From: Euglena gracilis
Lineage: Eukaryota
DNA: 64,000 bases
Assembly: GCA_039621445.1 (NCBI GenBank)
Contig: CP154954.1
Span: 37,495,703-37,559,702 of the forward strand
Direction of reading: 5' to 3'
This document shows positions 1 through 64,000 of this stretch, one piece after another; positions within the stretch are counted from its first letter, which is position 1; the number at the start of each line of letters is the position of its first letter. The notes beneath the pieces were generated by a model. That model did no database searches and was not told where the DNA came from. It saw nothing but the letters and a program-made list of their open reading frames with translations. A program made the translations under genes and the position numbers.

Positions 1-1913
1 ATTCGCGCACCAATTCCCGAGTCCACAGGCACATTGCCACCAAATCGCGTTTCCGCTCATGCGGTGGTTCCCCCACTAGCATTACCAGTCCCAATGGACG
101 AGTTTTCGGATGATGAGTCGGGTTTTCAAGCGAAAACCAGACCCACCCCCCTCTTAAATCAAGAGATTCGGGAATCCGAACTTATTCGTGGTATGATCCA
201 CACCCCTACACCGGGTATTGGTCACACCTCCCAAATTCGCTTAGTAGCACCAATGGTGCAACCATGTGATACCTCACCCCCACATGCGCAACCGCATCAC
301 CATTCGCGCAATCGCGATTCCCCTAATTTGCATGGTACCTATGGTACACTAAGTGGTATGTTCCATGCGCAATCGCAGAATAACCCGAACAATACCCTTG
401 GTGCAACCACCGGAGTACCTGCACATGGTGCGATTTCGCGCCCGGGCCCACGCCCCTGGAATACCACCGAAGGGCCACGGGTTTCTCAGAAAGATTTCAA
501 AGGCACCATCGCGATAGCGAACAAGGTGAAGCCCCAATGGGACGGTGACCCCACCACGTGGAAACAATTTTTCCGCGATTGGGAATATTACTGGGATTTG
601 AAGGGACCCACCCAAGATGACAACCCGGAGGTAATCAAGATGGAATTCATCGATTGCCTCCCCAGGGATGAAAAAGAACGCGCCAGACAATTGGTCATTG
701 GCAGGCGCATTTCTTTTGAAGAATTGGTTGAGCAATATGCTTCTTCATGCTCCAGTTTGGTTTCCAGAATCAGTCTGGAAAACAAATGGCGGCCAATTCA
801 CCCCCCCGGACCGCAAATGGAAGTCGATAGACTTGTGGTACTCCAAGTGGCTTGCATTAGCAGCCGAGGTTGATGAGTTAGGGGAAAAGCAAATCAAAGA
901 ACAATTTGATGCGGTATTACTGCGCTACATCCCCAAACTCATCAAGGAAATTCACCGCGAGGAACTCGCGGGACACATTTTGACTCTCGATGAGAGATGG
1001 AATTATATTTCCAAACAAATGAAGTTATCACAACTTCTGGGACAGATTGAATCGGCATATCACCACCACCCTACCGCGGGTGTACCCACCGGTTCAGTCC
1101 ATGCAGTCCAAAGGACTACCTCCCCAAAATCACCAAAATCACCATCGAGTGATTCCAAAACGCGCTATCCGCGCTCAAACCCCAAATCCCCGACACGGGA
1201 ATCCAAACCGCGCTATTCGCGCTCTTCTGACCAAGTTTCGGACAAAGTGTGCTTTTTGTGTAATCAACCGGGACATATGTCTCGCGAATGTCCGAACCCC
1301 CAAGCGCGAAAGCGCAGTAAGAGCCCCCGAGGATCCCTCACTTCCTGGAGTTCGCGTTCCTCACGATCTGCGCATTCGCAGCGGTCGGGATACCGATCGG
1401 GTGATGGAAGACCGCGTTCCCGTTCACCCCACCGCAATAGCGGACGTGGTTTCAAACCGCGAGGTCGGTCCCCCCGTACCCCCTACCCGTAATCGTTATG
1501 CCAATCGCGATTCTTCGCGATCTCGGTCGCGAAGTGGGTCATCCTCTTCGCGATCCGACCGCGGTCGAGCGGATAACCGCTCCCCGCGTCGCCATGATGC
1601 CAAAAGGCAATCGCAATCGCGAACCCGTTGTTCCCTTTGTGGGTCTAAAGACCACCATTCATCCAAGTGCCCCCGTTCCCGCTCTCCCCGCCCTAGCCAT
1701 GGTCGTCGCGATTCCAATCGCGGTTCTGCCAATAGGCAGCGGGTTGGTTTCAAAATATCCTCTATCGAGGAAAAAGACCTGGCTTCGGGCAGGGAGGGGG
1801 ATGAGAGCACCGAGGATGAGTTGGTGGAAGACAGGAATGCCATTCGCGCGATACGCGCAATTTACTCTAGGAAGTCCACCATAGGCCAAAAGGCCGACTC
1901 CGATATGGAGTAG
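1..1913 (+). CDS. gag: Gag (capsid-like region, two CCHC zinc knuckles, Ser/Arg-rich region); 5'-partial, apparent frameshifts near 805 and 1480
   Basis: ORFs 34-873, 668-1492 and 1047-1913 join up. Capsid-like PQWDGDPTTWKQFFRDW; knuckles CFLCNQPGHMSREC (1250-1291) and CSLCGSKDHHSSKC (1629-1670); ends at TAG 1911-1913. Confidence 0.85.
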
Positions 1914-1996
1914 GGGAGCCCGAGGTCTGAGGGCACGGACCTCTGGGCTGATGAACAGATGGAGGTAGGAACTGATCACCCCTGCCCCCCCTGCCC
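1911..1996 (+). promoter_or_regulatory. Candidate stop-codon readthrough signal at the gag/pro junction
   Basis: TAG is in frame with the protease ORF. It is followed by an 8-nt spacer GGGAGCCC and the stem GAGGTC (1922-1927)/GACCTC (1938-1943). Loop GGGCA could pair with TGCCC (1983-1987 or 1992-1996). Confidence 0.5.
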
Positions 1997-2520
1997 ATCG
2001 GTCTTTTTGGTCGGTACCCGGAAAATTTTCGGGTCCCCCACTCCCCGCGCCAAATTTTTGCTTGGAATGTTGAGCAAAGTAAGCCAAGGGTCATGGAACA
2101 GTTGGCGCAACAACAATTTTACACCCGACCCTTCGCTTTGCGTACCCCCCATGGAACTTTTGGTCCAAGCGAAAATCAAAACTCAAAATTTCTGTGCACA
2201 AGCCAAAATTTTAGTCGACACAGGGTGTCGAATCCCCCTTCTTTTCCGCAAAGGACTTATACCCACCCCCCTCTTGGTTCATGCCAAGAATCCCATCAAA
2301 ATTATGACCGCTGACAACAGCCCCATGTGCGGTGGTGACTTGGGATGCATTTTGGACATAGTCCTCCCCATTATCCCGAAGCACCACACACACACCCCCA
2401 CAATTCCAAAATTTTCTGGGTACTTGGGCATTCGAGGCGAATATCGCCGGGTCAGATGTCATACTCGGTTTTCCGTTCCTCCGGCAACACCGATTGGTGG
2501 TGGATTGTCCTTCGCACGGT
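1914..2520 (+). CDS. Retroviral-type aspartic protease domain of Pol (frameshift near 2400)
   Basis: KILVDTGC (DTG at 2217-2225); GSDVILGFPFLRQH follows in a shifted frame at ~2450-2490. Confidence 0.85.
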
Positions 2521-3576
2521 TTGCGCACTACCCCCCGCACACACACACACCACACCCCCGAACTTGTTCCCCGTGACATCCCCCAGGATGTCCCCCCGCA
2601 TTTCCACAACGTTTTCCACAACCGAAAACACCGTTTCCTACCCTAGGGGTAAAGAGAAAGCTGCCCCCCTACCCACCGCACTTTTACCGCTCGTTTCCCA
2701 TGCGGTAGGGAAAGCCAGTAGCTTAACCCCGCACGTTTCGCTGGGTTCCCAGGCGAAAGCCCAAAGGCCTGAAGAAATTTCGGTGTCGAGTAGCCGCCCA
2801 GCTGCACAACTTTTACGTTTTCCACCAGGTGTGTCGAGTTCAGACACCCCTGTACACCCCCCAGCAGCTACCCCAACCGACACCAACTTATGCACTGACA
2901 CCCACACAAACGCGCACCACATGCACCACCCCTCCTACCAATGCGCCCACTGTCGGAGAATTTCCGCTTACCATGATTTTGATTGTGGATGTCTAGTTGA
3001 AACTTCTAAACTAATCCGATTGGATCCCGCAACCGGGAATTTCCCCCCCCCTACACCTGGTAGTGATACCTATACACCTGGTACGGATTTAATAGATAAC
3101 CAAAAGGTACACAGCCTTGATACCATGGGTGATACACCCATCAGCACACTTGGTAATTATGCACAGCTCACAAATCCACTTGGCAGTTTTTCGCAATTCG
3201 CGAAAGTGAATCGAGCACTACAGTGCAAAGGCATAGCCTCCCTCTTCGGATTCGCGCATAGCGCTCCCTATGCGCCTATGGCGCTCTCCAACACCCCCGC
3301 GCATATCGCGCTTCCCGCACATAGTGCGAATTCCGCGCATATCGCGCTTGCCGCACATAGTGCGAATCCCGCGCATATCGCGCATTCCGCGCTATCGCGC
3401 ATCACCGATGATTGGGTATATGCCCAACCCACCCATGTCCCCCCTGGATTGAGTCCTATGGACATGTATGTGGATGATTCACAATTTCGTTGTTCTGTGT
3501 TACAGCGTGTTCCCCCCCTTCAGGATGTTGAGCAGATCTCCAAGTACACCAAGGATACCTGGAATGCTTTTCAATT

Positions 3577-3990
3577 TGGTCAATATCGAATTTTGAAACA
3601 TTGGTTTTCAAAAATCGCCGATATGGCGGATTCTTTTGATTTGACCTTGGAAATTGATGCATTCTCCTCCAACGCGCATTCGCGATTACCGCGACATTGG
3701 TCGCAACATTCTAACGCTTTTGATAAGTTTTGGGGAGACACTATCCTATGGATGCATCCCCCCCTGAAACTTATCCCGCTTGTTGTAGATAAAATTTTCC
3801 AGGATCAAGCGCGAGGCGCATTACTTGTTCCTGTGAATCCCGAAGCGGAATGGTTTCAAAATTTGACTTATGTCACATTTTATTGGTGGGACCTACCAAA
3901 CGATGTTCCTCTATTCGAGGATTTCCGTGGAGTGGTATTACCACCTTTTCAAGAAATCATTTTCCGTGTTTGTTTCTTTGATGCTTTTCA
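3577..3990 (+). CDS. Dam/DIRS-type DNA N6-adenine methyltransferase-like domain inside Pol
   Basis: In ORF 2345-4786, in frame with RT: EIDAFSSNAHSRL (motif I-like), NAFDKFWG, ILWMHPPLKLI (NPPY-like motif, here HPP at 3755-3763), VVDKI, ALLVPVNPEAEWFQNL. Order and spacing match the MT domain of DIRS elements and phage Dam enzymes. Confidence 0.8.
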
Positions 3991-4239
3991 TGTTTCTCAA
4001 TCTCCACCCCTGAATGTTAGTGTGTTGGATCATACCGACTATGTGGGAGCCGATACGGCTTTTGTGTCTCATGACGATAGGCCTACACGTTCGGAATCCC
4101 CTGTGGTCGATATGACCCATAAACAGGTTTCCGCTGTCATTGAAAGTGCAGGACAGCATCCAAAATCAGCAGAATCTGTACGCGCATCAGTCGCGAATTT
4201 TCTGGTGTTTTGGAAAACCCTGTTTATACCTTTTGGAGT

Positions 4240-5000
4240 TTGTAAGATTGAGCTTAAGGAAGGCGCAAAGCCAATGCATCGGAAATTTTTCCGTTGTTCC
4301 GGAGAAAGAGAGATAGCTCTCAATGAAATGATTGAAAAGCTCATAGAGCGGAAGTGGATCATCCCTTCCAAGAGTGAATGGACCTCCCAAGCAGGTCAGA
4401 AAAAGTGGAGGCTGGTACTGGATTATCGGTACTTAAACTCACAGACTAAGGATGACCCATTCCCGTTACCTCTAATAGAGGACCTTATCACAAAACAAGC
4501 GGATAACCGCTTGTGGTCAATTTTCGACCTGGAGGATGGTTTCCACCAAATGCATCTGGATCCCGATTCGCAAGCCTATACGGCTTTTGTAACATCCAAA
4601 GGTGTTTACCAATGGACGGTTTTACCAATGGGTGTTAAGAATGGACCAGCAATGTTTCAGCGCATGATCCAATGGGTCTTACGGGATTTACCGTTTGCGC
4701 TGGTATACATTGATGATGTTTTGGTTGGTACCCCCCCCTCCTTCAGCGAATACACACGAGAATATTCTCGACATTCACTATCGTGATGTTCGCGCGGTAT
4801 TAGCCGCATTTCTCAAACACAGACTCTTTGTCAAAGGTGCCAAAATGCACTTATTTCGCGAAACGATAAAGTTTTGCGGTCACATTCTCAATAATGGCCA
4901 ACGCCGAGCGGCGCCTAGCAAACTAGAGGCCATTAAGAAATGGACACCTGAGGTCATCAAGACCATCACCCATTTGAAAGGATTTTTGGGATTAGCCCAA
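4240..5000 (+). CDS. pol: Reverse transcriptase (Ty3/Gypsy type); frameshift at C-run near 4735
   Basis: WRLVLDYRYLN, FPLPLIEDL, FDLEDGFHQM, TAF, PMGVKNGPAMFQ, YIDD (4706-4717), then IKFCGH and LKGFLGL in ORF 4695-5366. Confidence 0.97.
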
Positions 5001-5089
5001 TATTACGCGATTTACATGAAAGATTTCGCGAAAATCGCGGTACCTCTATCGAGGCAACTCAAAAATCGCGCACCCGAAAATACCAAAGT

Positions 5090-5650
5090 CAAATGGGACG
5101 CAGATATGCGTGAAGCTCTAGAGAGCATTAAAAAGCTAATGCTTGAAAATGTCGTACTCGACATCGCGGATCCCTACAAGCCTTATGTGCTAGAAGTCGA
5201 TAGCAGCGATTATGCTGTAGGCGGTGTTCTAAGCCAGCATAACGCGGCTAACGAATTGCGCCCTGTAGCTTTTTTTTTTCTTTTTCTTTTTTTTTTTTTT
5301 CTTTTTTTTCTTTTTTCTTTTTTTTTTTTTTTTTTTTGCATTCTTCAGCAGAAAGCTACAAGGTGAAGATGGCAAAGGCCAAGTTAAATGAAGTATCCGT
5401 GTGAGAAGGAAACGTACGCAATCGTACTTATTTTACAAAAATTCCGTAGCTGGGTCGCCAGCTCCTTGGTGCAAATACTGGTGTTGACTGACCATGAGAG
5501 TCTTCAACACTGGTATACCGAGGATCTGAACAAAGCCATGTCATCCGTAGGCCGAAGATGCCGATGGCATGAATTTTTGAGCCAGTTCAACCTAGTGGTT
5601 GTATATACCCCTGGCCATACACAAAAAGTAGCAGACCCGCTCAGTCGAGC
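5090..5650 (+). CDS. RNase H domain, interrupted by a T-rich tract
   Basis: [14 protein letters not shown]...RPVAF[insert]FSRKL...EKETYA...LTDHESL...VADPLSR. Confidence 0.9.
5270..5337. repeat. 68-nt poly(T)/(T)nC tract inside RNase H
   Basis: Splits the conserved PVAFFSRKL motif; coding resumes at 5338. Confidence 0.9.
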
Positions 5651-6059
5651 ACCCTGGCATTACCCCGGTAACCCGGATGAAGGTGATGCCACCTTTCATG
5701 GAAGCCAAGAGGCTGATGAATATGCACGTCGATATGACGCAGCCGACGATATGTTGGATTCTTTTCCCGTTTCATCGATTTTTCGTTCGTTGCCAGTCTC
5801 TCCTATACGGGGGAGAAGGCGGCGAGGCCGCACACCTGGTCCCCGTCGCATTACGCGATCTGAATCTCCTTCCCCCCTCTTCTTTCGCGAATGGGATTAT
5901 TCCCATGACCCTGTATATAGCACGATAGTGCACAGACTGCGCAATGGCGAGGTTGTACATAATTATTCCCTTTCCCCTTTACGGTTGGTTTACCGCGATG
6001 ATGCGGGATATAAATATTGTATACCCCGTGACTTGGTTGATGAAGTACTTTTGTGTTAT

Positions 6060-7100
6060 CACAACCAAGGTCACCCTGGGGCCCCCAAACTTCTTTCTTT
6101 GGTGGGTCGCAGGTACTGTACAACCCTGAAAGAAAACGATTTGCATTCGCGCTGCTTGCAAATTTCGCAACGGTGCCAAATTTGTCAAGCGGTAAAACCG
6201 CGCAGAGGTACCCCCCCTGGTACGTTGGACTTTTTCCCCGTACCCCCTGACATTTTTACGTCCCTCTGCATGGATTTTCTGGAATTAGAACCTTGCAAAG
6301 GATCAGACGGCAAAATTTACGATTATGTTTTTGTTGTCGTCTGTAGGCTGAGTGGTTACATAGTAGCCATTCCATGCCAAAAGGCAGGGTTGACCGCGCA
6401 AATTTTAGCGCAGATATTTATGGAGAAGTGCATATGCCTAATGGGCTTACCGAATGAGATTGTCAGTGATCAAGATCATTTGATCTCCTCTCGATTCTTC
6501 ACAACCCTATGTGGTTTACTGGGAATCGAACAGCATTTTTCCATTATATATCGCCCGAAGGGCAATGGCCGCGCCGAGGCAGCAGTGAAAGCTGTTGTAA
6601 ATATGCTCCGTCTTTCACTGGCTGATTCGCGCCAGGCCTGGGTCCAGGTTTTGCCATGGTCCCTCTTTTATATAAACACCCTACCGGGTTTAGTTTTACC
6701 CCACTCCCCATACAAAATTGTTTTTGGGCGAGAACCCCCAGCAATTGGTGATATACCATCAGAGAGACCAGCTCGAAGTAGCGTAACCTGTGAGACATGG
6801 TTCTCTGAGGTAGAGTCTCTCAGAACTACTGTTCAGAAACGCATTACAGATATCCATTCTCAAAAGAGAAATAAATTTTTACAAGAATTCAAATCACCTG
6901 GCTATAGTGCTGGTGATCGCGTATGGGTTCGGAATAGCCGAATCCGTATGCAAGCTTCCAAGCTTGACCCCCTCTGGCTCGGGCCCTGTGAAATACTCGA
7001 ACGCGTTGGTAACAGTGGCCGCTATAGGGTGGCACTGCCCAACGGGATCGAGGATGTTCACATGGATGATTTCAAGCCATACCTTCAGACGCCTAATGGC
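6060..7100 (+). CDS. DDE integrase with HHCC finger and GPY/F-like module
   Basis: HNQGH...CQIC; catalytic MDF, SDQD, GRAE; WLGPCEI; all in ORF 5388-7346. Confidence 0.95.
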
Positions 7101-7154
7101 AAAGCACTACCGTGCCTTTATTTCAAGCCCCGTTCCAAGTTACCCGAAACGGAT

Positions 7155-7346
7155 GATTTTGTGGTGGACAAAATTCTCGATCACAAAATTGATCGAGGAG
7201 TCCACTACTGGAAGGTCAGGTGGAAAGGCTATGGGCCAGAGGAGGACACCTGGGAGCCAGCCTCCAGTTTTGTCGGTTATGTCCAACAGGACTGGAAGCT
7301 GTGGAATAAAAGAAATAACATAGACATTTCTGTGAATAATTTCTGA
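7155..7346 (+). CDS. Chromodomain at the integrase C-terminus
   Basis: [39 protein letters not shown], with aromatic cage residues retained. Confidence 0.93.
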
Positions 7347-7360
7347 AATCGGCCTATAGG

Positions 7361-7425
7361 CCTTTTCCTCCCCTCTCCGTGTTTTCCTCCCAACCTCAAT
7401 TCATTTCTCTCTTCTTTTTCTACAG
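7361..7425 (+). promoter_or_regulatory. Polypyrimidine tract plus AG: candidate (trans-)splice acceptor for ORF3
   Basis: About 60 nt of mostly C/T ending TTCTTTTTCTACAG, 39 nt before the ATG at 7465. Confidence 0.55.
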
Positions 7426-7464
7426 CTCATCAAAGCTACTTTTTGCTTTTTGGTCCCCGGACCG

Positions 7465-10400
7465 ATGCAAGATCCAGGGCGCGGACCCGGTCCGCCCCCT
7501 ATACAGTATGCCATCCCTCCCTACCCCCCTCACGCCTATGCGGCGGCACCCCCAGCCCAAGGGGCGCCCGCATATGCGGTATATCAACCCCTCCTGCCGC
7601 TTATGCGGCCCAGGCACAAATGCCACCCCCACCTCAAATGATTCAGGCACAAATGCCATACCCCTCTCAGGCACAAATGCCGCCCCCCTCTCAGGCACAA
7701 ATGCCGCCCCCATCTCAGGCGCAACCGCCACCTGTCGCTTATGCGGCTTCTGTGCCAATGGGAGCTGCATATGCGGCACAGCCTCAACAGGCATATCAAG
7801 TTCCAATGGAACAGTCACAACCCCAGCAGGTACACCAAGTTCCAATGGAACAACAACAGTATGCGAGGCAGGGACAGGCACCTCCAATGGAGCAGGCGCA
7901 TTACGCCATGCCTGGCCCCTCACCTCCCATCCTGTATACCCCACAGTATGTTACATCTCAGCAACCCCAATCCCAACCCCAATCTCAACCCGTACAGGGT
8001 ACCCCACATCAAGTACACGCCGTACAGGCGATGCCCCAACCTGCTGCTTATCCCGTCCGGGAACCCGCTGCCCAAACCGCAGCTAGCAGCAGTAGTATAT
8101 CCGCTTACGCGATCCCTGTGGCACATGAGACGCCACAGGCAGCACCAACGGTGCCATACCCCGCCTTCACCGCAGAATTGGTGAATCTCGCAGAGAAGAC
8201 TCTGCGAACGGCCTTGCGGGCCAGCAACCTAGAGAGAGTAGACCCATCTCTACAGGTGCTGTGGGATACCCACTGTCGTCAAATTCTGGGCCTGGCCAAT
8301 AGGCCCATTGCACAATGGTGCGCATGTGGCCAGACTTTGATGACAGGGAAAGTGTACTTCATGCCCGGGGAATATCCCCCTGAGGTCAGCATGCGTACAC
8401 TGGGTATTACAGTACCACCTATCCCGCGGATACGTCATCACGCAGGTGCATTCACCGAATATATGCGTGAACAGAGTCCCTCGATAAAGGAAAGCGAGAT
8501 GGGAGATTATCCAGCACAAACAGTGCAACCATCGCGAATTTTTCGCGATACCCAATCCCCACCTCGTATGCCGAGACCACCACCACCCGAATATCGGGAA
8601 CCACCAACGCAATATGCGGCGGAGCCAATGACGCAACCGTCAACAGCACAACCACCATTTCCTTATCCAGCCCATCTGGAAGCTGGAAGTCAGTTACCCG
8701 TACAACGGGATATGTCGGTGGCTCAGAAACCTGGATCCTGGGCTGAGGATGTGGAGCAAGCCGAGGCCGAAGGCCGAATGGCTGTGGAAGAGGATGTGCC
8801 AACGGCACCTGAACCTCTCCCAGCACCTCGCTTCACATCACCTCAGCAGGCCATCCAGTACTACCAGTCCCTAGAGCAACTTCAGGGCCCACGGTCTGCA
8901 GAACGCAGATATGCGTCACAGCCGTACAGGCCAGCAGACCTAGGTAGTAAACGGGGCAGGCCAGAATCTTCATCCCCAATGGGGAGACCGAAACCCCCGG
9001 CCCCTGCCCCAGCCCCAGCCAGACAGGCTACCCCAGCACAGCAACGACGGCGCCGGGTGGCCAACAGGCCGCACCCCCTCCCGTGCCCGTACCGTATGCC
9101 GCGCCGGCTAAGCCAGCGCCAATGGCGCAAACCCGGCCGGTGCCAGCAAAAGCAGCAGCGCCGGCAGCTCCAGCAGCGCCAACGGCGCCACTGCCGGTAG
9201 CAGCGCCAATGGCGCCAGCATCCCAAGAAACACCGGTACCTCCAGGCCAACAGGCCACCACCGAGGTACTGCCTGTTCCTGAACCCACACAGCAGCAGCT
9301 CGAACAGGCTGAATTGGCCCAGAGAGCCCATAGGGCAGAAATCGAGCACGAAGCTGCTGAGCGTGCACGCGTCCAGAAAATACTGGATGACACGCGTGAA
9401 CGTACACGCCACCCCACTTACATTGATCCGCCTAGAGGCGAACCCCTCCCTATCAATAATCCACCATTTTTGGCGGATATGCAGGATCAACCTGCAGCCG
9501 ACCCAGCAGCCAAAATGGCTTATGCCCCGCAGGAATTGCTTGGAACAACAAGTGATATGAATCCTGCCTTTATAGGCCCTCATTTTGCAGCCCATCTCTG
9601 TCCTCATGCTTGGAAACAAGCTAGAGAAAAGATTGCCCGAAGCGAAGCCCGATCGGGCAAGGGTAAAGCCAAAAGTGCTCCCAAACGAGCACCGACAGCA
9701 GGCCAAAAAGGCCAAGGCAAAGGCCAGAAAGGCCAATACCGGAACGTCTATGAGGACGACATGGAAGCTCTATTCGAGCACATCAAAGAGATTCATGCAC
9801 TCGCATTCGAGGCCATGAGAAAGTTTCAAAACGAACTTTCTCTTCCAATGCTGGTTGCATCCCCCGTCGTGACTGTGACCAGACAGCTCTATTTGGAGCG
9901 TAATCGTGAGTTCCACCACGATGGAACCCTGTATGCCTATGAGGGCAACGTAATTCTCGGTCCGATACTGGACGGACTGCCGGGATTCTGGCACGTTTGG
10001 TTCTGGGCGGGATACCCCACCCAAAATTTCGGCAGATTTCTGAACTCCTGTGGATATCCTTATCTGGATTGTGGTCGGGAAGACCGATACAATACAGGTA
10101 AAGATTTGCTACGGCAGTTATTCGACTGCATTCGCAGTGTAGGCCCAAAAGGCCTGGAGTGGGAAATCTACCCACTGCCTGACAATATTGCCAAATTGGC
10201 AGAAAACATGTTCTGCAGCAATCTGCAAGTCTTCTACCACTGGCAATATGCCTATCATTTTGAAGTGGTCGATATTGACCTCCGCTTCCCCCAGACGTAT
10301 ATCGTCAGATGCACCCACTGTCACGAAAAGTTTGCAGTGGACTTCTGGGGATTCGGAGTACGCAGTACTCAACCACAGGCCGAAGGCCAGGACGAGGAAG

Positions 10401-13267
10401 GCCAACAGGCCAATATCCCGCAGACAGCGCCAAAGCGCATCATGCTCCTGCACCTTTGCAGAAATCCAAAGGATGTTCACCAAAGCTCGAATGGGCGACG
10501 CAACCACCGTCAACTCCTGCTGTATTTGCAGCAATTCTGGTTCAGGGCTTGGACCTGCCAGATTATGGAGATATATTATTATCTCAATCCCGATAGGGAA
10601 ATCCCCCCGGACTATGTCCCCATTAGGCCCCGTTTCGAGAAGGAAAGCATAGACGATTATGTCAAACGCCGATTCGGCGATACGCTCGATAGAGCACTAT
10701 TCCAGCCGTTTTTCCAAGGCGGCAGACGGAACGAGCTGGGCATGGCCCTACCCCTCCTACGCTTCAACCACAGAATGGTTGAAGACGAAAGGAAACCATG
10801 GGATCTTTTCCGATTACGGAAAAGACAGGTGCCACAGGCACCTGCCCCGAAGCCGCAACCGGCTTCAGAAGTTCCGCCATCGGAACCTTCAACACAGCCG
10901 CAACCGGCATCAGTACCCACAACGCAGCCGCAACCGGCAACGCCTGTTCCCCAGGGTATTCCTGGTGACACACCGCCACCCGTCTTTGGGCGCGGTCGGC
11001 GTTACCTAAGTTCCAGCCTATCGGCTACTGCGGAACCATTTATCCCTAAGGGATTACAGGAGAGTCAATCTTCTGTCGCAACCTCTTCACCCCAGCCCGC
11101 TATTGCGGCACCCCCCACCAGCGCGACTGCGCAACCAACAGCTGTGCCTACCGCTACAGCGGAACAGCCAGCAGCCCCTGCCGCTTCACCAGAAACGGTG
11201 GAGGACAGTGAGGGGAGTGATGGTGAGGGCGGTGAAGACCGCATGGAAGGCCTGGAAGACATATGTGCTGATGAACCTCAGCAATCAGTCCTTCCACCAG
11301 TCCCAATAGGGTCCAGGACACCTCTTCCACCTGAAGGAGATGTCAGCTCAGAGTCTGAATCGCCTGCATCCGAGGCCGAACGGCCACCGGTACCCCCGGT
11401 ACCACCCCTAGCCTTACCAGTAGTGCCAACGGCACAAACGACGACAGAACCTGTCGCATCACCGACAATACCTACGGGTGTTTTAGGTGGTGTGTTACAG
11501 GGGCTCACCGCGGCGATGTCCGCAGTATCAGCAGTACTGACCCCTCGAGGCTCACCAGCCACATCCCCTCCCGAAACCCAAAGGGTTACTACGGCAGATA
11601 GCAGCTCAACAGCCGTACAGCCTACGGCTACAACTCCAATGGAGTTGGATGTCCCAGCAGCTAAACCAGCTGCACCAGCACCGCCAACCGCGGAAATGCA
11701 ACCGCCTCCTGCCAAACCGGCAGCATTGGCACCTCCTGCCAAACCGGCAGCCCCGAAACCGTCAACAGCGGAAAGACCACTGCCTCCGGCAGACCCTCGT
11801 GAAGAACGCCGATATGGCAGGCAGAAGAAGCCTAAGGCTAAACCTTCAGCCGAAGGCTGCAAGCCCGCTGAACAGCGGCGGGATGATGAGCCACCACCGT
11901 CTGGTGGAGATGGCTCTGGCACAGGCCATAGGCCTACGATACCCATGGCCAGCTATGTGGCTGCAACCTCTGAAGGCGCTAAGCGCAAACCGACAATCAG
12001 ACCGATTCGGTCAAATGTCCCTCACGAGGCCGATGAGCCATTTTGGACTGAGGACGTACTGTCCAGAGTAGACCCCCTCAACACTCGCCAGGCTAGGATC
12101 AATATGATCCGCAACAGCAGTGACCCCTGGCTGAACAAGTGGATCAAGCCCTTGTTCCACCGGGATCAACCCGGTATTTTCACGACCAGCCACACTTGGC
12201 GTTTTTGGAATGCGAAATCTCCAAGGGTATTAGCCCAATATTTTGGAGGAAATTTCGTACTGGATTTCCAGGACAACGATCCACTATTGTGGTTATGTAC
12301 AGCATGCCATAGGCTACGAAACGACATGCCCGCAGTGCATATCTGCACACGCAACCCGGATAGCATAAGCTTCCACCATGATGCATATGTGCGCAATTGC
12401 GCAGCACTGGTTTGTGGCGATTGCCTGCTGACATGGTCCAATATGGACAATTTCCGCTGGACAGAAAACGATTATGACAAGGACATACCTGTCCGTTGCA
12501 TCAACTGCCTACAGGCAGGTTTTTGGTTACCTGCCACTGGTGGTATGACTAGAATCATACCAGAAAATGAAGACCATCTGGTCAAATTCAAGCAGGACTA
12601 TAAATCCCAAATCAACTTCTACCAGTTCAAGAAGTTCAAAGCTGTACACAGCTACGGCACAGGCGGAATCGCCAAAGATTTTCATCTTGACAGCGCAGCT
12701 GTCCGACTCGCAGTCGAGTCAGCAGGCAAGGCCAAAGTGCCATACATTTTTCAAGACTCCGATTGGGACAGGGTAATATACCCACTTTTTACGGCACAAA
12801 GCCTGCCAAACCGACCAAGTTTTACCTTTTTGTTGCCTGAATACCCCCCTGAGGCCTACAAAATGGAATTTACCGATTGGGTAAGAGAAGTTTTAAGGCC
12901 ATTCACCATCCGAGCGCGAGTCGCAGGTTGGCACACCAAGGCAGATCCTGCCGTTTATCCGGGGATACCCCCACAGGTTCAATGCAACCATCCCCGCCTA
13001 AATTTTTGGATCTGGCCGGCAATGTTGCCACTTTTCTTCTGGGATAACCTCCAGAATTTTCTGCATCGCGAAGCCAACAGGCTTGGAGTACGATTACCCG
13101 ATGGGTATACACAAAAATGGGAATATCCCGACTTTGATGTTGATGAGCCTGAAAGGCAACTTGTAAATTTCGAACCTCCGATACTGGAGATAGTGGAATC
13201 TCCTGAAGGAGATTACGTTCGGGAGATCAGACCACCGACTCCAAGGAAATGGCCGTCTGTGCCATAG
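7465..13267 (+). CDS. Extra retroelement ORF3 (~1,900 codons, apparent frameshifts near 7590 and 9050-9080): Pro/Gln/Ala-rich linkers, two globular blocks and an 8-Cys zinc finger
   Basis: MQDPGRGPGPPP (7465) joins ORFs 7443-9200 and 9083-13267. Aromatic-rich blocks at ~9760-10830 (with CTHC) and ~12040-13260; C-x2-C-x12-C-x17-C-x4-C-x2-C-x24-C-x2-C at 12296-12508. Confidence 0.75.
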
Positions 13268-37044: not shown

Positions 37045-37983
37045 AACCCTCCCCCCAAATAATACCCCCCCCCCTCGGGGTCTGACTTCGGCCGCCGAAA
37101 TAATACGCCCCCAAGGCTTTTGCTTAAGGAACCCCGGGGGGGGGGGGGGGGGTACTGGCTAGGCAATCGGCTAGACACTGGGAAAAAATGGACTAGCTAG
37201 ACCCCCTCCCCCGGGGGGGGGGGGGTCTGGGGGTCCCCCCAACTGGAAAATTTTTTTTCCTCCAGCACTGCGCGCCGAGGTAAAAATGAGGTTTTTAACA
37301 GGTTTTTGGCTGATTTTGTTCCAAAAATTCCCAAAAAATGGCCATTCTTGGGGGTCCCAAAAAAAATTCCGGCGCTTCGCGCCGGTCACTTGGAAAAAAA
37401 ATTTCCACTACCAATTTTCCACTACCATGCCCCCCCCCATATAAGACCCCCCCTCAGGAGCCAAAATTCAGGGGGGGGGTCTTATATGGGGGGGTGTCGG
37501 TCCCGGCCAAAGGGCCGGCCAGGGGGGGGGGGGTCTTATATGGGGGGGCATGGTAGCTAGCCCTGCTAGCAGACCCCCCCCGGGGGGGGTCTGCTAGAAA
37601 TCCCACTAGCCAAATTTGGACTAGCTGCAGTCCAGCCCCCCCCCCCCGGGGGGTACTGCAATCCCTTAAGCAGAAGCCTCCCCCCCCCCCCGGTGTCGGG
37701 ACGAAAGCCCGGATTTTTGACCTGAAAATGTAGGTAAAAATTACAGTTTCTGACAACAAATTACGAAAAAAAATTGATTTTTCTGGATCATCTGGCCTCC
37801 AAAAAATGCTAAATTTCATGAGAAAGTACAAAAAATGACCCCAAAGGGGGGTTTTGACGCTATTTTTGCTCCTACGGAACACCGAAAAAGTTCGAAAATT
37901 TTTTCGAAATTATACCCCCCCCCCTCGGGCCGGGACTTCGGGCGAACAAATAATACCCCGGGAGGGTATTATTTGGGGGGGTT
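37045..37983. mobile_element. TA-flanked MITE with nested insertions, including a TA-flanked CCATG-ended MITE at 37425-37553
   Basis: TA|AACCC..CCCAAATAATACC ... GGTATTATTTGGGGGGGTT|TA. Inner TIR CCATGCCCCCC..ATATAAGACCC. Related copies at ~27769-28172 and 41165-42878. Confidence 0.7.
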
Positions 37984-55996: not shown

Positions 55997-56943
55997 GTCA
56001 GTCGATTTCCATTCAGGCGCCCGTTTATGTCAGTCGATTTCCATTCAGGCGCCCGTTTATGTCAGTCAATTTCCATTCAGGCGCCCGTTTATGTCGGTCG
56101 ATTTCCATTCCATTGAAATCTGTTGCTGGTCAGATTGGGAATTTTTAGTGACTTTTTGGACATTTTGGATCTCCCTTTTTTGAAGACATTTTTGGTCCTA
56201 TGGGGTTGTGGAGGCGTTATGGACCAGAAAAAAACCAAATTTTGTGGTCAGGTGATCACAGCTGGCTGAACTTTGGATGGAACAGACGGAAGGACGGAGC
56301 TGAAGATTATCATTTTCTGGGACTTCAGACAAAGCATTCGGCAAATTTGCCCTGAACCAGTTGTTATCACTGGTCATCTGAAAGAAAAGCTTTTGGGTGA
56401 GGAGTGATTTGGCCACGTTAAACCTATTTTCTGGGCTCGACGCCTGTATTGCAATTCTATTCTATTGCAAGGCTGTGTTCCTGGCAACATGGCTTTGGTC
56501 AAAATCTGTGTTTCTAAAAAAATGCAGAGTCTGCGTTTTAGGCACAGTTCTTGAGATAGAGCTTGTTCTTGTCAAAATGGAAGAAAAAATGCATTCCGAA
56601 AAAATGCAGAGTCTGCGTTTAAGACACAGTTCTTGATGTAGAGATTGTTTCTTTCAAAATGGAAGAAAAGCTGCATTCCGAAAAAGGGAACAACAGGTTG
56701 GGTCGACATTAACGGATTTCAGGCTGAAACCTAAAATGTCCCGAAACGGAACAAAAGGGCATTCAAAAAAAGGACACAAAAGGTCGGTCGATTTCCAAGA
56801 CATCGGAAACCGTTTATGTCAGTCGATTTCCATTCAGGCGCCCGTTAGTGTCGGTCGATTTCCATTCAGGCGCCCGTTAGTGTCGGTCGATTTCTATTCA
56901 GGCGCCCGTTAGTGTCGGTCGATTTCCATTCAGGCGCCCGTTA
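55997..56943. repeat. Two arrays of a 31-bp repeat GTC(A/G)GTCGATTTCCATTCAGGCGCCCGTT.. (55997-56110, 56818-56943); related copies at 30227-30275 and 30768-30830
   Basis: Head-to-tail units with no spacers; probably subterminal repeats of a ~1-kb element. Confidence 0.88.
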
Positions 56944-58152
56944 ATGGGCCAAAAACCACTTTTTTGACCATATTTCCGTCCAGGCGGTTCGGTCGAATGA
57001 ATATCAAGACAGGCGTCGGGCCCAGACAAAATAGGTTTTAGAAAAATCGACCGACACTAACAGATTCAGCAGGGGCGCCGGGCGGCTCGCTTCGCTCGCT
57101 CGCGCCCGGCGACCATACTGAATCTGTTAGTGTCGGTCGATTTTTGTATAGAATCCTACTCAGTTCAAAAAGTGCCAAAAATGGTCGAAAACATCCAAAA
57201 AAGCAGAAAAAATGCAATTTTATTACTTTTTCCGTTTTTTATGGGAGGTAGTCTTTGGCAAAACTGAACCAAAAGTTACCAAAAATGACCGAAAATACGC
57301 ATTCAAAATTTTTTCTTTACAAAACCTAGTGGGCGTTTTTTTTGTTTTTTTTAAAAAAACATTGTTTGAAATAAAAAAAAACAAAAAAAACAAAGAAAAA
57401 AAAAACAGGCATGACCACTATGTCCTGAACCCGGCGTCTCTAAAACGCCGCTTTAAACAAGGGGTGGCGGACGCCGGTTCTGTCCAAAACCCGGCGTTCC
57501 GGACGCCGGTTCCGTCCGGAATGCCGGGTTTTGGACAGAACCGGCGTCCGCCACCCCTTTCTTGTAGTATACTTTTGTCCAAAAAAAAAGGCTTACACAA
57601 TAGGTACACTCCGGTTGAAGTTTAAAAAGGCAATTGTGCAAAACACCCAATCCAAGGGCAAAAAAATTCGGAACGAATGCTTTTGGAATGTGCAACCACT
57701 TTTGAGGAAAAGTGCGAACAAATTGGTGGTATGTGCAAACATTTTTGAGATTAAGTGCAAGAAAATTGACCGGAAGTGTAAAAGCATGCGGAGCGAAGTG
57801 CAAAAAAATTCGGTTGTTAGGTGTAAAAAATATTTTCTTAAAAAGGTATGTTTTTTTAAAAAAAAACAAAAACAAACCGTCAACCTTGGCACTCGGCCGA
57901 CTACCCACCACCCACTCCCCTCCCAGTCGACTGTCTGGCACCCGTGCCGACCCCTCCCCCCTGTCCCTCCAATATGAAACACCCCCTCGGGAGCCAAAAT
58001 CCTGAGGATGTTGCAGCTATGCCATGGTGTGGGGAATCGGTCTCAGCCAAAGCCCCCCCCCCCCGCCTTGTACGGCAAGGGGGTGCATGGGTGCATGTGG
58101 GGGGGGGGGAGGTGATGGGGGGGGGGGAATGGACAACTGCAATGGTCTGGTC

Positions 58153-59126: not shown

Positions 59127-59431
59127 GGTACTTGTCTGTTAGTCGATCCACGGCAGTGCATCAAGTCTGTTAGTCGATCCACACCCTATTCAACCCTATT
59201 CAATAGGAATGACCACTTTCAGTGCAAAACAGGATGTGTGACGTCATAATTTGACCATGTGACGTCATACACAAGCAAAATGATGACCGTATGACGTCAT
59301 ACTTGAGTGTGTGACCCGGGGATGACGTCATAAGGTCCAAATCAGCTGCATATTTGACGTCATCAAAGCATAGGGGAAGAAAGGGTGTGGATCGAGTCGT
59401 TTTGCCGTGGATCGACTAACAGACAAGTACC
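59127..59431. mobile_element. GGTAC-ended MITE with five TGACGTCA palindromes
   Basis: 29-bp perfect TIR GGTACTTGTCTGTTAGTCGATCCACGGCA; perfect TSD ATTCGGGC. Nested in an inverted relative of the 26640-26957 repeat. Confidence 0.92.
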
Positions 59432-60087
59432 ATTCGGGCTGGGAGCCTCCCCCCCCCCCCCAGGGGTCGAGTGAAATAAAGTCGGGTCCAGCCCGGCCGG
59501 AGGCCGGTCACAGGCTGGCCAGCCAACTGGGCTGCCCAGCTCACTTATCCCTGCATTTTCCCCCTCATCACAGCCCCTCCATCACAGCCCCCCAGCCTTG
59601 ATCTAGCTCCACCCATCAAAATGTCGAAGATGGCAAAAATGTGTTAGAAAAATTTGTTTTTCCTCGACCAGCCCTCCAGCACCGGCCCCCCCCCCCCCCC
59701 CCCCCCCGCGGGGGGCAGCCATACCCCCCCAAATAAGCCCCCCCCCCCCCGGGCCGATCAAGGAAAAATCCAAAAATAAGACCCCTCCTCATAAAAAAAG
59801 ACCCCCCTTGATCCCCCTTGCCGCGGACGGTGAAAGTTTTCCCTGAAAATTACCAAAACCCCAATTTCATGCACATGAAATTTCCAAAGTTTTCAGATTT
59901 TTGAAGTGGGGGGGAGGAGGGGGAGGGAGGGTGGTCCCGGTCCGTCGCAGGTGATTTTTTTCCCGGTCAGAAAACGCCGGCAACCACCCTGCAGCAGCCG
60001 CTGCAAGTGGTGGTCCTGTGCCAGTGCATCGAGCCACACCCCCCCACAGCGGGCTACCACGCGAGCGCCCGCGCGGGGGAGGCCCAG

Positions 60088-60155
60088 TTCTGAGTGTCTA
60101 TTTTTTGTTTTTTGTTTTTGTTTTCTTTGTCTTTCTGAGTGTCTATTTTTTTCCG
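60088..60155 (+). other. Two euglenid spliced-leader exon copies (partial 60088-60106; near-complete 60131-60155)
   Basis: CTTTCTGAGTGTCTATTTTTTTCCG versus the Euglena SL ACTTTCTGAGTGTCTATTTTTTTTCG. No GT donor or SL intron follows, so these are not SL RNA genes. Confidence 0.88.
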
Positions 60156-60430
60156 CATAATAAATGGCGGACAATTGAAAGCCCCTGGTGGGGTCAAGTA
60201 TCCAAGTCAAGAATTCAACTACAATCGAAAGTCACTTACAAGTCCTGCTGGTGCAGGCAGAAGAAGAAGGCAGAAGTCCTGCTGGTGCAGGCGGAAGAAG
60301 GCAGAAGTCCTGCTGGTGCAGGCAGCGGTATTCAAGTTACAAGTTTTGGGCTTCAGCCCTTTGGTGGTACTGCAGGAGCTCATCGTGCTGTCTATGGACG
60401 GTATGGCCTTTATGGCTTATCTGGTTTCTT

Positions 60431-60620
60431 TGGGCCTGAAAAGGCCCCCACCAACCTTTTTGGGCCTGAAAAGGTCCCCCCAGCCACTGAGCCTGCAAAG
60501 GCCCCCCCAGTCACTGGGCCTGAAAAGGTCCCCCCAGCCACTGGGCCTGAAAAGGCCCCCCCAGCCACTGGGCCTGAAAAGGCCCCCCCAGCCACTGGGC
60601 CTGCAAAGGCCCCCCCCCCA
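60431..60620 (+). repeat. 27-bp tandem repeat (GPEKAPPAT-coding), ~7 copies
   Basis: CTGGGCCTGAAAAGG(C/T)CCCCCCAGCCA units. Confidence 0.92.
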
Positions 60621-61294
60621 TGGTCAGCCCCCCATTCACTGTATACCCACCCCTTCTGTCATGCCCAACCACTGCAAACCCACCATGCATACAACCATTC
60701 TTTGGATCTCCAAAGGTCACCCATCATCAACCTTTCCATTTGCATGCAGGAAAACCTTCTGGTGCTGACATCTTCCCCAACCAACCCCCCAGATTGCTTT
60801 CAAACATTGTCCTCCATCCTCACCCCTGTCATCTCACATCAGGCATCAGACATCTTTTCACAGTTTTGGTTTTCATTGCCAGACTCGGGGCCAGTGGCTG
60901 CACCAACATCTGTTGTTGTAAGCCCCCCACTGACAACTGGAACCTGTTTGCATTCCTTCTCTGTGCACTCTCTTTTGCTTTGTTTGAAAGTGCCAGTGAA
61001 AACCTGTGTCCTGAAGGAAAACTCTGTTCAACCGTTGACAACAGTTTGCCAAAAAATGGGGGAAAATTTTTCATGTTCCAAACTTCAGGGCCCATCACAC
61101 ACCCATCTCACCTGCAAGACTTTCTGATGTCGCCTGTCAAGCCCAGCACTGCAGCACCCACCCACCCACCCACCCAGCCAAACACTCCAAAAAATATGCT
61201 TGCCTCCTTTTTTGGAAACCCCACTAACACCAGTCTGGACCAGCGATTTGCAAAGACGCAGGGGCCTGCAAAAATCAAGCAACACGCCTCTTCT

Positions 61295-61348
61295 GGGAGG
61301 GGAGAAGAAGCCCTGACCTGTGGTGATGTGGAAGCCAACCTAGGCCCC
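61295..61348 (+). other. 2A-like (StopGo) peptide, Pro-to-Leu variant
   Basis: GRGEEALTCGDVEANLGP versus T2A EGRGSLLTCGDVEENPGP; the Leu codon CTA is one change from Pro CCA. Confidence 0.7.
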
Positions 61349-61929
61349 GAAGACGACGTTGAAATGTTAACAGCCTCTCAATGTTCTCAACTTGGCCCAG
61401 CCCATGGCTCCTGGTTTCCGATGAATGCGCTGCCGGTTTTCCCCCAACTCCCTTTCGCCCTGCCGACTGCTTCCGGAGTGCCCGGCCTTGATGCTGGTGG
61501 CCAATGGCTACAGGACCACCAAAATGCTTCATTCCTCCCCTTGATGGACAACATCCACCCTGTGACTTTACCCTCACCACAACCACCAACGCCAGCACAC
61601 CTGCCCATTCAGTCAACTATTGCTTCTCCGTCAACGACGACCGCTCAACCATTCCAACGATCCTGTGCCATATCTCCTGTCGTTGCCGGAGTTAGTAACC
61701 CTGGTCAGCCCGCTTCACACTCCCAAGGGGACGTGGCCATGTTACCCAACTCACAGGACAGCAGGCAACGCCGAGTATCTTGCTCTGTTCCCCCGGGTAC
61801 GTTCCCAGATGACGGGGCAACCTTGCATGGCTCGGTTGCATGCTCTCCACCCATTTGAAGAGCCCCCTGGTTTTGGAACGTGGGACCCGTCTCACCAATT
61901 GCAATTTGCGAGAGATGCAGAAACCTTGC

Positions 61930-63540
61930 GGGACCGAACGTTTGCTCTGCGGAAACTCATCTGCACCTTCCCAAAAGACTCCGCTCCGGGGCCGTCTGGG
62001 CTCCGGCCAGATCACCTTCGGAGCATGCTAGCAGACTTGCCAGGATCGCGAGCTGAGGATCTCCTTGAATGCTTGGACAAATTTGTCACAGATTGCATCT
62101 CCAAAGGAGTCCACCCCCTCATGGCTCCGATTCTATCATCGGCAACTCTCACACCCTTGCGTAAGGCAGCCGCCAACCCACAGAATGGTAGTGAACCGGC
62201 AGCTGATGGCACCCGCCCAATCGCTTCTGGTGAGTGCCTTCGGCGGTTGGTGGCCAAAGTGCTGATGCACCACCCAGCAGTGACCCAATCACTTAAGGAC
62301 CTGTGCCCCCTGCAAACAGGTGTCGGTGTCAGAAATGCTTGCAGCCTGACAGCCATGGGTTTGCAACAGATGGTTTCTGATCTTCACAATAAGAAGGAAG
62401 AACGGTGGGGCTTGCTCCAAATTGACCTCACAAACGCCTTCAACAGGATGTTTCGCGCCTCCGCTCTCGACAGTGTCCGCCGCAGATGCCCATCCGCCCT
62501 GCCATGGTTGGAGAGCTGCTATAGCCAACATTCTCGCCTGTTTTGTGGGAAATCGCTGCTGCTATCCGCCCGAGGGGCACAACAAGGGGATCCGTGTGGT
62601 CCTGCTCTCTTTGCATGGGGTCTCCAAGACATGCTTGAAGATTTGTCCGCTTCTGTGGAATGGCAAGGCTGGTACCTCGACGACGGACATCTGTTGGGTT
62701 CCCCCATGCAACTCCACTCAGCACTGTCCACTCTCTCCAGGGAGGCAGGAAAAAGGGGCCTTGTTGTCAATCTTGCAAAGTGCAACCTGTGGGGCCCCTC
62801 TTTCACCTCTGCTAGCAACCATGGGTGTTATCCGGACGCTATTCCACCAGACAGCCCCCTGCGCCAAGTGCCAATTGTCCCGTTTGTGAAGGACTCCGGC
62901 GTCAAGGTCCTTGGTGTGCCACTCTGCCATCCTGAAGGTGACGCTTTTGCCCGACAAATCTGGCGCAAACGCGTGGATGGTGTTGTGAAGGCATGTGACT
63001 CCCTCTCAAGGCTCCCCCAGGCACACCTCCAGTTCACCATTCTGCGATATTGCCTGACATCATGCAAAGTCAACGACCTCCTTCGCGCTACGCCTCTTTC
63101 CACGGGCCGCCCAGAATGTGCAGCTTTCCGTACGACCCTCCGACATTGCTTTGAAGGAATAGTTGGCGGCCCTGCTTCCCTGAACAATGGGAACAAATTT
63201 GTCTCCCCATCCGGCTGGGTGGACTGGGCATCTCTGACCCGGGACACATTCGTCTACCAGCTCGGATTGCTGGCATTGTGGAATACATCCGTCGAGGCCC
63301 CGAAACCCTTGGTATTCCTTCGGCGTTCCCCAGGGCCCCCTCAGACACTCTGGTGTGCCTCCAAGAAGCCTCAGCCATCCTCGGCAACGTTGCACCACTG
63401 GTGCAATGGGTTGACGACCTGTCACTGTTGAAAGACGCGCAAAGTCCTCACACCTCCCAAAAGTGGTGGAATGGACAATTTTCCACGGCACGGCAAACAG
63501 TTCTTGCAAGGACCCTGCCCCCCACTGACCAAGTCCAATT
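61930..63540 (+). pseudogene. Non-LTR reverse transcriptase (CRE-clade-like)
   Basis: SAPGPSGLRPDHL, RPIASGECLRRLVAK, LQTGVG, IDLTNAFN, GAQQGDPCGP, WYLDDG, GLVVNLAKC, VKVLGVP; frameshift near 63180. Confidence 0.92.
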
Positions 63541-64000
63541 AGTGAAAAGCTTCCTAATTTTGAGGGGATTTGGTGGCCAATTCCTAACTTTCAGTGATTA
63601 ATGCCTAATTTGGGGTGCAAAGCCCTACAAGAGGGGTTGCTTTGGGCAATTTTTAGTCACTTGAAACCGTTCCACACAAAATTTCAGCCTTTTTCCGTCC
63701 ATAACAGGTAATTTTTGTCAGTTCGTGGAAAACGGACCATCAACTGAACAATTTTTAGTCATTCGAATAATTTGTTGGCAAAATTCCTTCACAATGACTA
63801 TGGAATGACCCAAAAATCGGCTGAAATGGTCAAAATTGGTCAAAAAAGTCCCAAAATTGGCAAAATTGACAAAAAATGACGAAAAATGACTTCAAATGGA
63901 GGCTAGGCGCGCCGCTCGGGGGGGTCCGGGACCCCCCCCTCCCCCCCCCCTGCGCGTCCCCTGCGCGGCCGCCCGCGCGGCCGCTCGCCCCCCCCCCCTG

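Follow-up and report, generated by a model that had tools for sequence, protein, structure and literature searches.

A spliced leader encoded at its exact exon end upstream of a decayed non-LTR retrotransposon in Euglena gracilis: a possible retro-copy of trans-spliced element RNA

Relic spliced leaders (SLs) in dinoflagellate genomes, retrotransposons with a restriction-like endonuclease (RLE) in SL genes and 2A motifs in APE-type elements are already known; the case from Euglena gracilis described here rests on a single decayed copy. RLE-type elements specific for SL genes are known in trypanosomatids and nematodes, where the CRE clade (CRE1/CRE2, SLACS and CZAR) and the nematode element NeSL-1 insert at a fixed site in SL-RNA genes. 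R2 targets the 28S rDNA, and an HDV-like ribozyme is said to release its 5′ end from a co-transcript. PMC4035085 mentions HDV-like ribozymes within mobile elements. The RLE clades are described as mostly target-specific, with SL exons and microsatellites among their targets, and the CRE-clade elements and NeSL-1 as interrupting the SL-RNA genes (PMC4640811). In dinoflagellates, SLs encoded directly before a gene body (DinoSL relicts), several in a row and sometimes with short gaps between them, are by the accepted reading the traces of retro-copied trans-spliced RNA (PMC5585692, PMC12014239, PMC7245778). Symbiodinium genes carry up to eight such relicts, some separated by gaps of 6-450 bp, which have been read as the outcome of repeated retroposition (PMC5585692). 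Motifs of the form D(V/I)ExNPGP near the N-terminus of the polyprotein are described for the 2A-bearing non-LTR elements, namely L1Tc, ingi and animal elements of the APE type (PMC3708506), and PMC1874656 describes the Pr77-derived transcripts of L1Tc as unspliced.

In E. gracilis, SL trans-splicing is estimated to affect more than 70% of transcripts, and the splice sites of the SL RNAs are of the canonical GT/AG type (PMC10679874). The main arrangement of the SL-RNA genes in Euglena is an array with 5S genes (PMC2784804 citing Keller 1992). The literature searched yielded no description of genome-encoded SL relics or of SL-tagged retrotransposons in Euglena, and an SL-tagged retrotransposon is likewise not described in the portions of the dinoflagellate relic literature examined.

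The window, that is the whole stretch of DNA analysed here (64,000 nucleotides), contains two SL sequences in close succession upstream of a reverse transcriptase (RT) gene in the same orientation (Table 1). The published SL of E. gracilis is ACTTTCTGAGTGTCTATTTTTTTTCG (PMC6242988), and the SL primer given in PMC5654406 is concordant with it. Read directly, the stretch runs, in order, ...GGAGGCCCAG TTCTGAGTGTCTATTTTTT GTTTTTTGTTTTTGTTTTCTTTG TCTTTCTGAGTGTCTATTTTTTTCCG CATAATAAATGGCG... In the upstream copy the exact match is preceded by CAG, where the SL has ACT, and followed by a T6G end rather than T8CG; aligned across the full length of the SL it agrees at 20 of 26 positions. The downstream copy has T instead of A at position 1 of the published SL, and C instead of T at position 24. 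TRF describes the area of the spacer as (TTTTTTG)x3.6 with a period of 7 (60101-60124). A 21-mer SL pattern with up to three mismatches finds these two sites only on both strands of the 64 kb, with none expected in 100 shuffles, and a 13-mer SL core with at most one mismatch returns the identical two sites. These matches bear out what an earlier note on this DNA had reported from the letters alone, a partial SL, a T-rich spacer and a near-complete SL without a following GT. A 15-mer at 37764-37778 on the minus strand that resembles the 3′ part of the SL has no SL sequence upstream and is a chance match.

Table 1. Features of the SL-RT unit, in window coordinates
Feature	Position	Strand	Basis
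SL copy 1, partial (SL positions 4-22)	60088..60106	+	19/19 exact against published SL
T-rich spacer, 23 nt: T6G, T6G, T5G, T4C, T3G	60107..60129	+	direct reading
SL copy 2, full 26 nt, ends at the final base of the SL exon	60130..60155	+	24/26 against published SL
Presumed 5′ UTR of retro-copied RNA, with two tandem arrays	60156..61195	+	TRF, ORF reading
51-codon leader, frame 2, from ATG 61196, ending in decayed 2A-like GRGEEALTCGDVEANLGP	61196..61348	+	core 61295-61348
Proline-rich linker, frame 2; holds the missing zinc-finger/N-terminal junction and the frame change 2 to 0	61349..61811	+	start homologous to P0023
RT region, frame 0, without in-frame stop	61812..63167	+	tblastn, P0001 aa 178-632, 47%
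Frameshift (63168-63184), then post-RT region in frame 2	63168..63541	+	tblastn against P0001, P0002
Unrelated AT-rich repeat-like sequence, replaces the element's 3′ part	63542..64000 (window end)	.	direct reading; relatives

The two copies have only SL positions 4-22 in common, and the 30 bases before and the 40 bases after them are unrelated; what is repeated is therefore the SL alone, rather than a duplicated stretch of the genome. A local tandem or segmental duplication as the source of the two SLs is ruled out by the same flanks.

At the 3′ end of the downstream copy, TTTTTTTCCG is joined directly to CATAATAAATGG; CATAATAAATGGCG occupies 60156-60169, so that CATAAT and not GT follows the SL. 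Neither copy is followed by a GT or by the SL intron. A complete SL exon joined at its exact 3′ end to foreign sequence is the product of trans-splicing in RNA, and the presence of such a junction in DNA implies reverse transcription. The SL at this locus thus very probably marks a retro-copied trans-spliced RNA, and the chance that this RNA was the element's own transcript appears even or slightly better. Of the alternatives that the earlier note had offered, the first, a trans-spliced RNA copied up to its 5′ end, fits the exact junction between SL exon and body, co-oriented with and upstream of a non-LTR RT.

The arrangement resembles that of the DinoSL relicts in that the SL is encoded in sense orientation directly 5′ of the presumed RNA body and ends at the last base of the exon, without the intron of an SL-RNA gene. 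It differs in phylum and in the SL itself, and also in that the tagged RNA is apparently a retrotransposon rather than a host gene. In tandem relicts of dinoflagellates the shortened copy is the downstream one, whereas in the Euglena locus the upstream copy is shortened and the downstream copy is of full length.

Downstream of the SLs, the open reading frame 61566-63431 matches Pfam RVT_1 (E 2.5e-13), which covers ~62205-62921, an RT domain such as RLE-type non-LTR retrotransposons carry. With the TRF arrays described below, this match also upholds the earlier observation of tandem repeats and an RT beyond the SLs. Among the relatives (numbered here P0001 onwards), the RT is most similar to P0026, with 49.8% identity over 458 aa (P0026 aa 905-1359). 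Behind the frameshift the alignment continues in another frame, where 63170-63541 is matched by aa 639-749 of P0001 and aa 633-757 of P0002. Overall, the homology of 61812-63541 to P0001 spans aa 178-749 and is broken by a single frameshift. Family homology stops at 63541, before the part that carries the CCHC motif and the endonuclease, and no relative matches past 63545. The copy in the window is dead: it is without the N-terminal domain, carries a frameshift and is cut before the endonuclease. A second copy was not found within the window, either by blastn of 59800-64000 against the window or by tblastn of the three ORF translations.

The leader upstream of the RT ties the two to one protein family. 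Its 2A core reads DVEANLGP, in which the essential NPGP of the canonical D(V/I)ExNPGP is changed at one residue to NLGP, and the motif of this copy is probably inactive, judged by the residue change. P0023 likewise starts with ML, has a leader of equal length (51 residues, counted to the GP of its own decayed 2A), and continues with the DDVEM..ASQ..HGSW.PM linker of the window; it is a second decayed leader-2A-linker module in public data and the sole true match of an exhaustive search. P0026, the nearest relative of the RT, is a polyprotein of 1736 aa with three canonical 2As, of which the third, GRGAALLTCGDVEANPGPQDD (counterpart in the window GRGEEALTCGDVEANLGPEDD), stands ahead of the RT, 256 residues before the start of the homology with the window. 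P0005 (43%) begins with MTCGDVEANPGP and has two further 2As; both P0026 and P0005 have, before the RT, canonical motifs that are near-identical to the one in the window. Of the 63 relatives scanned, five (P0005, P0006, P0026, P0027 and P0044) carry one to three canonical 2A motifs ahead of the RT. Since the nearest relative of the RT has an almost identical 2A upstream of its RT, leader and RT represent one lineage.

Within the linker, the family's zinc-finger/N-terminal domain is missing. Codon-position GC indicates coding in frame 2 over ~61056-61800 and in frame 0 thereafter, with the shift near 61650-61800. When a profile of the relatives' N-terminal domain (n=9) was run against all six frames of 59500-62300, only its last 17 positions matched, at ~61824. 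The window has 158 residues between the 2A and the RT homology, too few for a missing domain of roughly 190 residues, and leader, linker and RT are therefore read as one element with an internal loss; this reading is drawn from the relatives, not from a second copy. The loss would have been an internal deletion or an RT template switch near 61650-61812, which would also explain the change of frame.

The locus may be read as a non-LTR retrotransposon copy, now dead, of a lineage that bears 2As and encodes an RLE; the template RNA of the copy would have been SL-trans-spliced and reverse-transcribed up to its capped 5′ end; we give this reading a probability of about 0.5. Much depends on the region between the SL and the leader, 60156-61195. 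It contains tandem arrays of 31 bp x2.6 (60240-60325) and 27 bp x6.8 (60431-60616), and few AUGs, the first of which (60164) opens an ORF of four codons. Pfam gave no match in three frames upstream of the RT, and a word-based search with frame 1 (60139-60768) gave none among 7055 candidates. Exhaustive phmmer with the frame-2 ORF 60578-61858 matched only P0023 and P0024, the latter a spurious bacterial repeat protein, and returned no homologue of the part within 60156-61195. The codon-position GC signal is absent at 60756-61205, and the long open frames of the region are taken to be compositional because one of them continues upstream through the SLs into the flank. Without a homologue, the roughly 1 kb after the SL can be assigned to the element only by inference, as its presumed own 5′ UTR; the relatives P0005, P0044, P0027 and P0026 have 330-640 aa upstream of their last 2A, which counts for the SL standing at the 5′ end of the element.

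Alternatively, the locus could be a chimera, in which the SL and the sequence behind it derive from an unrelated trans-spliced host RNA, as a processed pseudogene or by template switching, and stand before a 5′-truncated retrotransposon fragment. In a single and rearranged copy, sequence of other origin could have become attached to the RT, and with the 3′ end of the element lost, a tail or target-site duplication cannot prove a single insertion unit. The region is indeed repeat-rich and rearranged, the kilobase behind the SL is without relatives, and homology to the RT family begins abruptly at 61812-61824 (P0001 aa 178), as it would in a 5′-truncated copy. However, the leader with its 2A is of the type that belongs to the element and is situated before this break, so that any foreign part would have to end before ~61190. 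A search of 60156-63600 for an internal poly(A) boundary between SL and RT also speaks against two joined units: there is no poly(A) remnant, no A-rich 20-mer and no A-run longer than the A6 at 61051 and 61189. Nor does the region offer a convincing host-type ORF, given the four codons that follow its first AUG. A chimera is on these grounds unlikely.

If the tagged RNA was instead that of the element, the sequence of events might have been the following. The RNA of the element would have received the host SL by trans-splicing and would then have been reverse-transcribed to its capped 5′ end, leaving the SL encoded before the element. The upstream copy and the spacer could stem from a second cycle of this kind, a reading also given to tandem DinoSL relicts; transcription would have run through the first copy, trans-splicing would have used an upstream acceptor, and the retroposed copy would have lost three 5′ bases. 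The two-round model needs both this 5′ truncation and a later change, since the upstream copy is shortened and ends in T6G, not T8CG. Alternatively, slippage or jumping of the RT on the U-tract of the SL may have produced the upstream copy and spacer. The T-runs of the spacer, each closed by G or C, look like a reiteration of the SL's own T8CG end, which would fit RT slippage, a template jump between SL-bearing RNAs or later growth of a microsatellite. Template jumping is known from R2. The N-terminal domain and the endonuclease part would have been lost later, and the frameshift added.

The nature of the element bears on whether it might rather have inserted into SL sequence. A word-based search with the RT found 22 relatives, ~1000 aa long when complete, and a profile of 12 relatives gave 45 matches; none among the 22 and the 45 is named CRE, SLACS or CZAR. 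The only eukaryote named among the RT matches is the dinoflagellate Polarella glacialis, and one other match is labelled as a Planctomycetes MAG. At the C-terminus of the 12 aligned relatives, C813, H836, E857, D883 and K913 are invariant and C810, H823, C826 and R865 are present in 90% or more, giving the pattern C..C..H..C, RH, E, RP(x)D, D, K. In the profile of the 12 relatives, the stretch from the RT through the CCHC motif to the endonuclease aligns with R2 proteins of solved structure (9nl3, E 9e-39; 9dou, E 1.5e-38). P0001 alone gave no match in a phmmer search of the PDB, and a search of the ESM Atlas returned only unnamed RT clusters. Conservation of the CCHC motif and of an R2-like endonuclease in the relatives identifies the lineage as RLE-type; in the window copy the CCHC/PD-(D/E)XK endonuclease is absent through the loss past 63541, and it is seen in the relatives only. 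Unlike R2, the element would owe its 5′ end to trans-splicing, and no Rfam ribozyme match was found in 59500-64000 at E<=1.

The earlier note had called the RT CRE-like and had suggested that the locus would extend the link between SLs and CRE elements to euglenids. With CRE1/CRE2, SLACS, CZAR and NeSL-1, the element has in common a non-LTR RT, a C-terminal CCHC and RLE (here in the relatives only) and physical association with an SL. The SLACS/CRE REL consensus is C[X1-3]C[X7-8]H[X3-4]C[X9-10]RHD/N..E..R/KPD..D/E (PMC12857005). In its strict form this consensus is matched by none of the 63 relatives, and the window copy has no such domain; a loosened pattern of our own making is matched by 21 of the 63. 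On this one feature compared, the lineage departs from SLACS/CRE, and the label CRE-like is unproven. The genomic setting differs as well, in that here a complete SL exon adjoins the element without the context of an SL-RNA gene. Rfam at the gathering threshold gave no match in the whole 64-kb window, and thus no 5S rRNA gene, and the search of 59500-64000 at E<=1 returned a single miRNA match of no significance and no 5S gene. With the exon complete, the intron absent behind both copies and positions 1-3 of the upstream copy wrong, an insertion inside an SL-RNA gene or an SL/5S array is not seen at the 5′ side, the 3′ junction being outside the view. Among 59 loci of distant relatives, in records all labelled bacterial or MAG and only 22-33% identical to the first sequence of the query profile, none carries the Euglena SL core or DinoSL. 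Targeting of SL genes in the manner of CRE/SLACS is not extended to euglenids by this locus.

A broader form of targeting deserves separate mention. An endonuclease with a preference for SL-derived or T-rich microsatellite sequence could have placed the element, with or without an SL of its own, beside an old target represented by the upstream copy and its (TTTTTTG)n. Target specificity is the rule in RLE clades (PMC4640811); among the relatives' loci, L022 and L023, which are 99.3% identical over 3.4 kb, have (ACAG)n on both sides, and A/AT tracts form the ends of L006 and L016. However, these target-specific relatives are as distant from the first sequence of the query profile as stated above, the upstream copy lies outside any SL-RNA gene, and targeting leaves unexplained why the downstream copy is of full length and stops precisely where the exon does. 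We regard this explanation as quite improbable. An origin of the two SL-like stretches apart from retroposition, as the decayed remains of a dispersed SL-RNA gene (orphon) or as a motif that arose by chance or by duplication, is scarcely credible: some Euglena SL-RNA genes are said to be dispersed (PMC2784804 citing Keller 1992), but neither copy leads into a GT or intron, the flanks of the two are unrelated, the shuffles gave no chance matches, and Rfam, which may lack a model of the Euglena SL RNA, has no match here.

The reading preferred here, a retro-copy of the element's own trans-spliced RNA, would have wider consequences if other copies agree. The retroposition of trans-spliced RNA, a major force in dinoflagellate genomes, would operate in euglenids too, and a retrotransposon's own RNA would be a substrate of SL trans-splicing, which would bear on how elements without a promoter of their own come by a cap and a defined 5′ end. 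Agreement among copies would also provide a simple marker by which retrocopies could be found in a genome as large and repeat-rich as that of Euglena. A more general proposal, which we put forward tentatively and consider doubtful at present, is that euglenid RLE retrotransposons routinely gain a capped 5′ end by SL trans-splicing from host co-transcripts. If so, trans-splicing would take the role of an internal promoter or of an HDV-like ribozyme, and every full-length retroposition would write the SL into the genome anew; a row of SLs would stand for successive cycles, and encoded SLs would be a general tag of retroposition in Euglena, as the relicts are in dinoflagellates.

The relatives show further diversity. 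P0026, P0027, P0005 and P0039 are RLE-type RT polyproteins with upstream modules separated by up to three 2As. P0027 contains an SLBP-type histone-hairpin RNA-binding domain (E 2.6e-20), P0026 a Dam-like stretch, P0005 an NPPF motif seen by eye and P0039 a weak match to a Ulp1 protease (E 0.0016). In contrast to the APE-type L1Tc, ingi and animal elements, which share the D(V/I)ExNPGP motif, the lineage here is RLE-type, and its up to three 2As separate extra modules that include SLBP-type RNA-binding and Dam-like domains; we know of no description of RLE-type RT polyproteins with modules separated by 2As. Among the 59 loci of distant relatives, eukaryote-type non-LTR retrotransposons (L006, L016, L022 and L023) stand in records labelled as bacterial MAGs, and the many copies in one 'Dehalococcoidia' assembly suggest mis-binned eukaryotic DNA. 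The copies L022 (9259-12687) and L023 (9258-12687) are inserted in (ACAG)n microsatellites.

Elsewhere in the window, a Ty3/gypsy chromovirus-type LTR retrotransposon at 635-7346 on the plus strand carries a zinc knuckle, RT, RNase H, integrase, SH3_Tf2-1 and a chromodomain, together with a weak match to a Dam-like adenine methyltransferase (E 4.5e-4) upstream of its RT; it matches the 'DAM-LTR' elements described from E. gracilis (bioRxiv 10.64898/2026.05.21.726589). Directly after it, at 7347-13267 on the plus strand, follow open frames of 617 and 1438 aa without a Pfam match, which may be a further part of the gypsy element (an extra methyltransferase or other module) or a gene of unknown kind. 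A unit of 305 bp at 59127-59431, with perfect 29-nt inverted repeats and five TGACGTCAT copies within ~130 bp, looks like a MITE with palindromic TGACGTCA sites. Near-perfect hairpins at 57459-57559 (47-nt arms, 98%) and 57039-57148 (46-nt arms, 91%) both lie inside an AT-rich repeat field (56000-57900) with 32-bp periodic repeats. Long homopolymer tracts of C or G and G/C-rich blocks occur on both sides of the SL-RT unit, at 59686-59707 (C22), 58047-58125 and 63918-63998.
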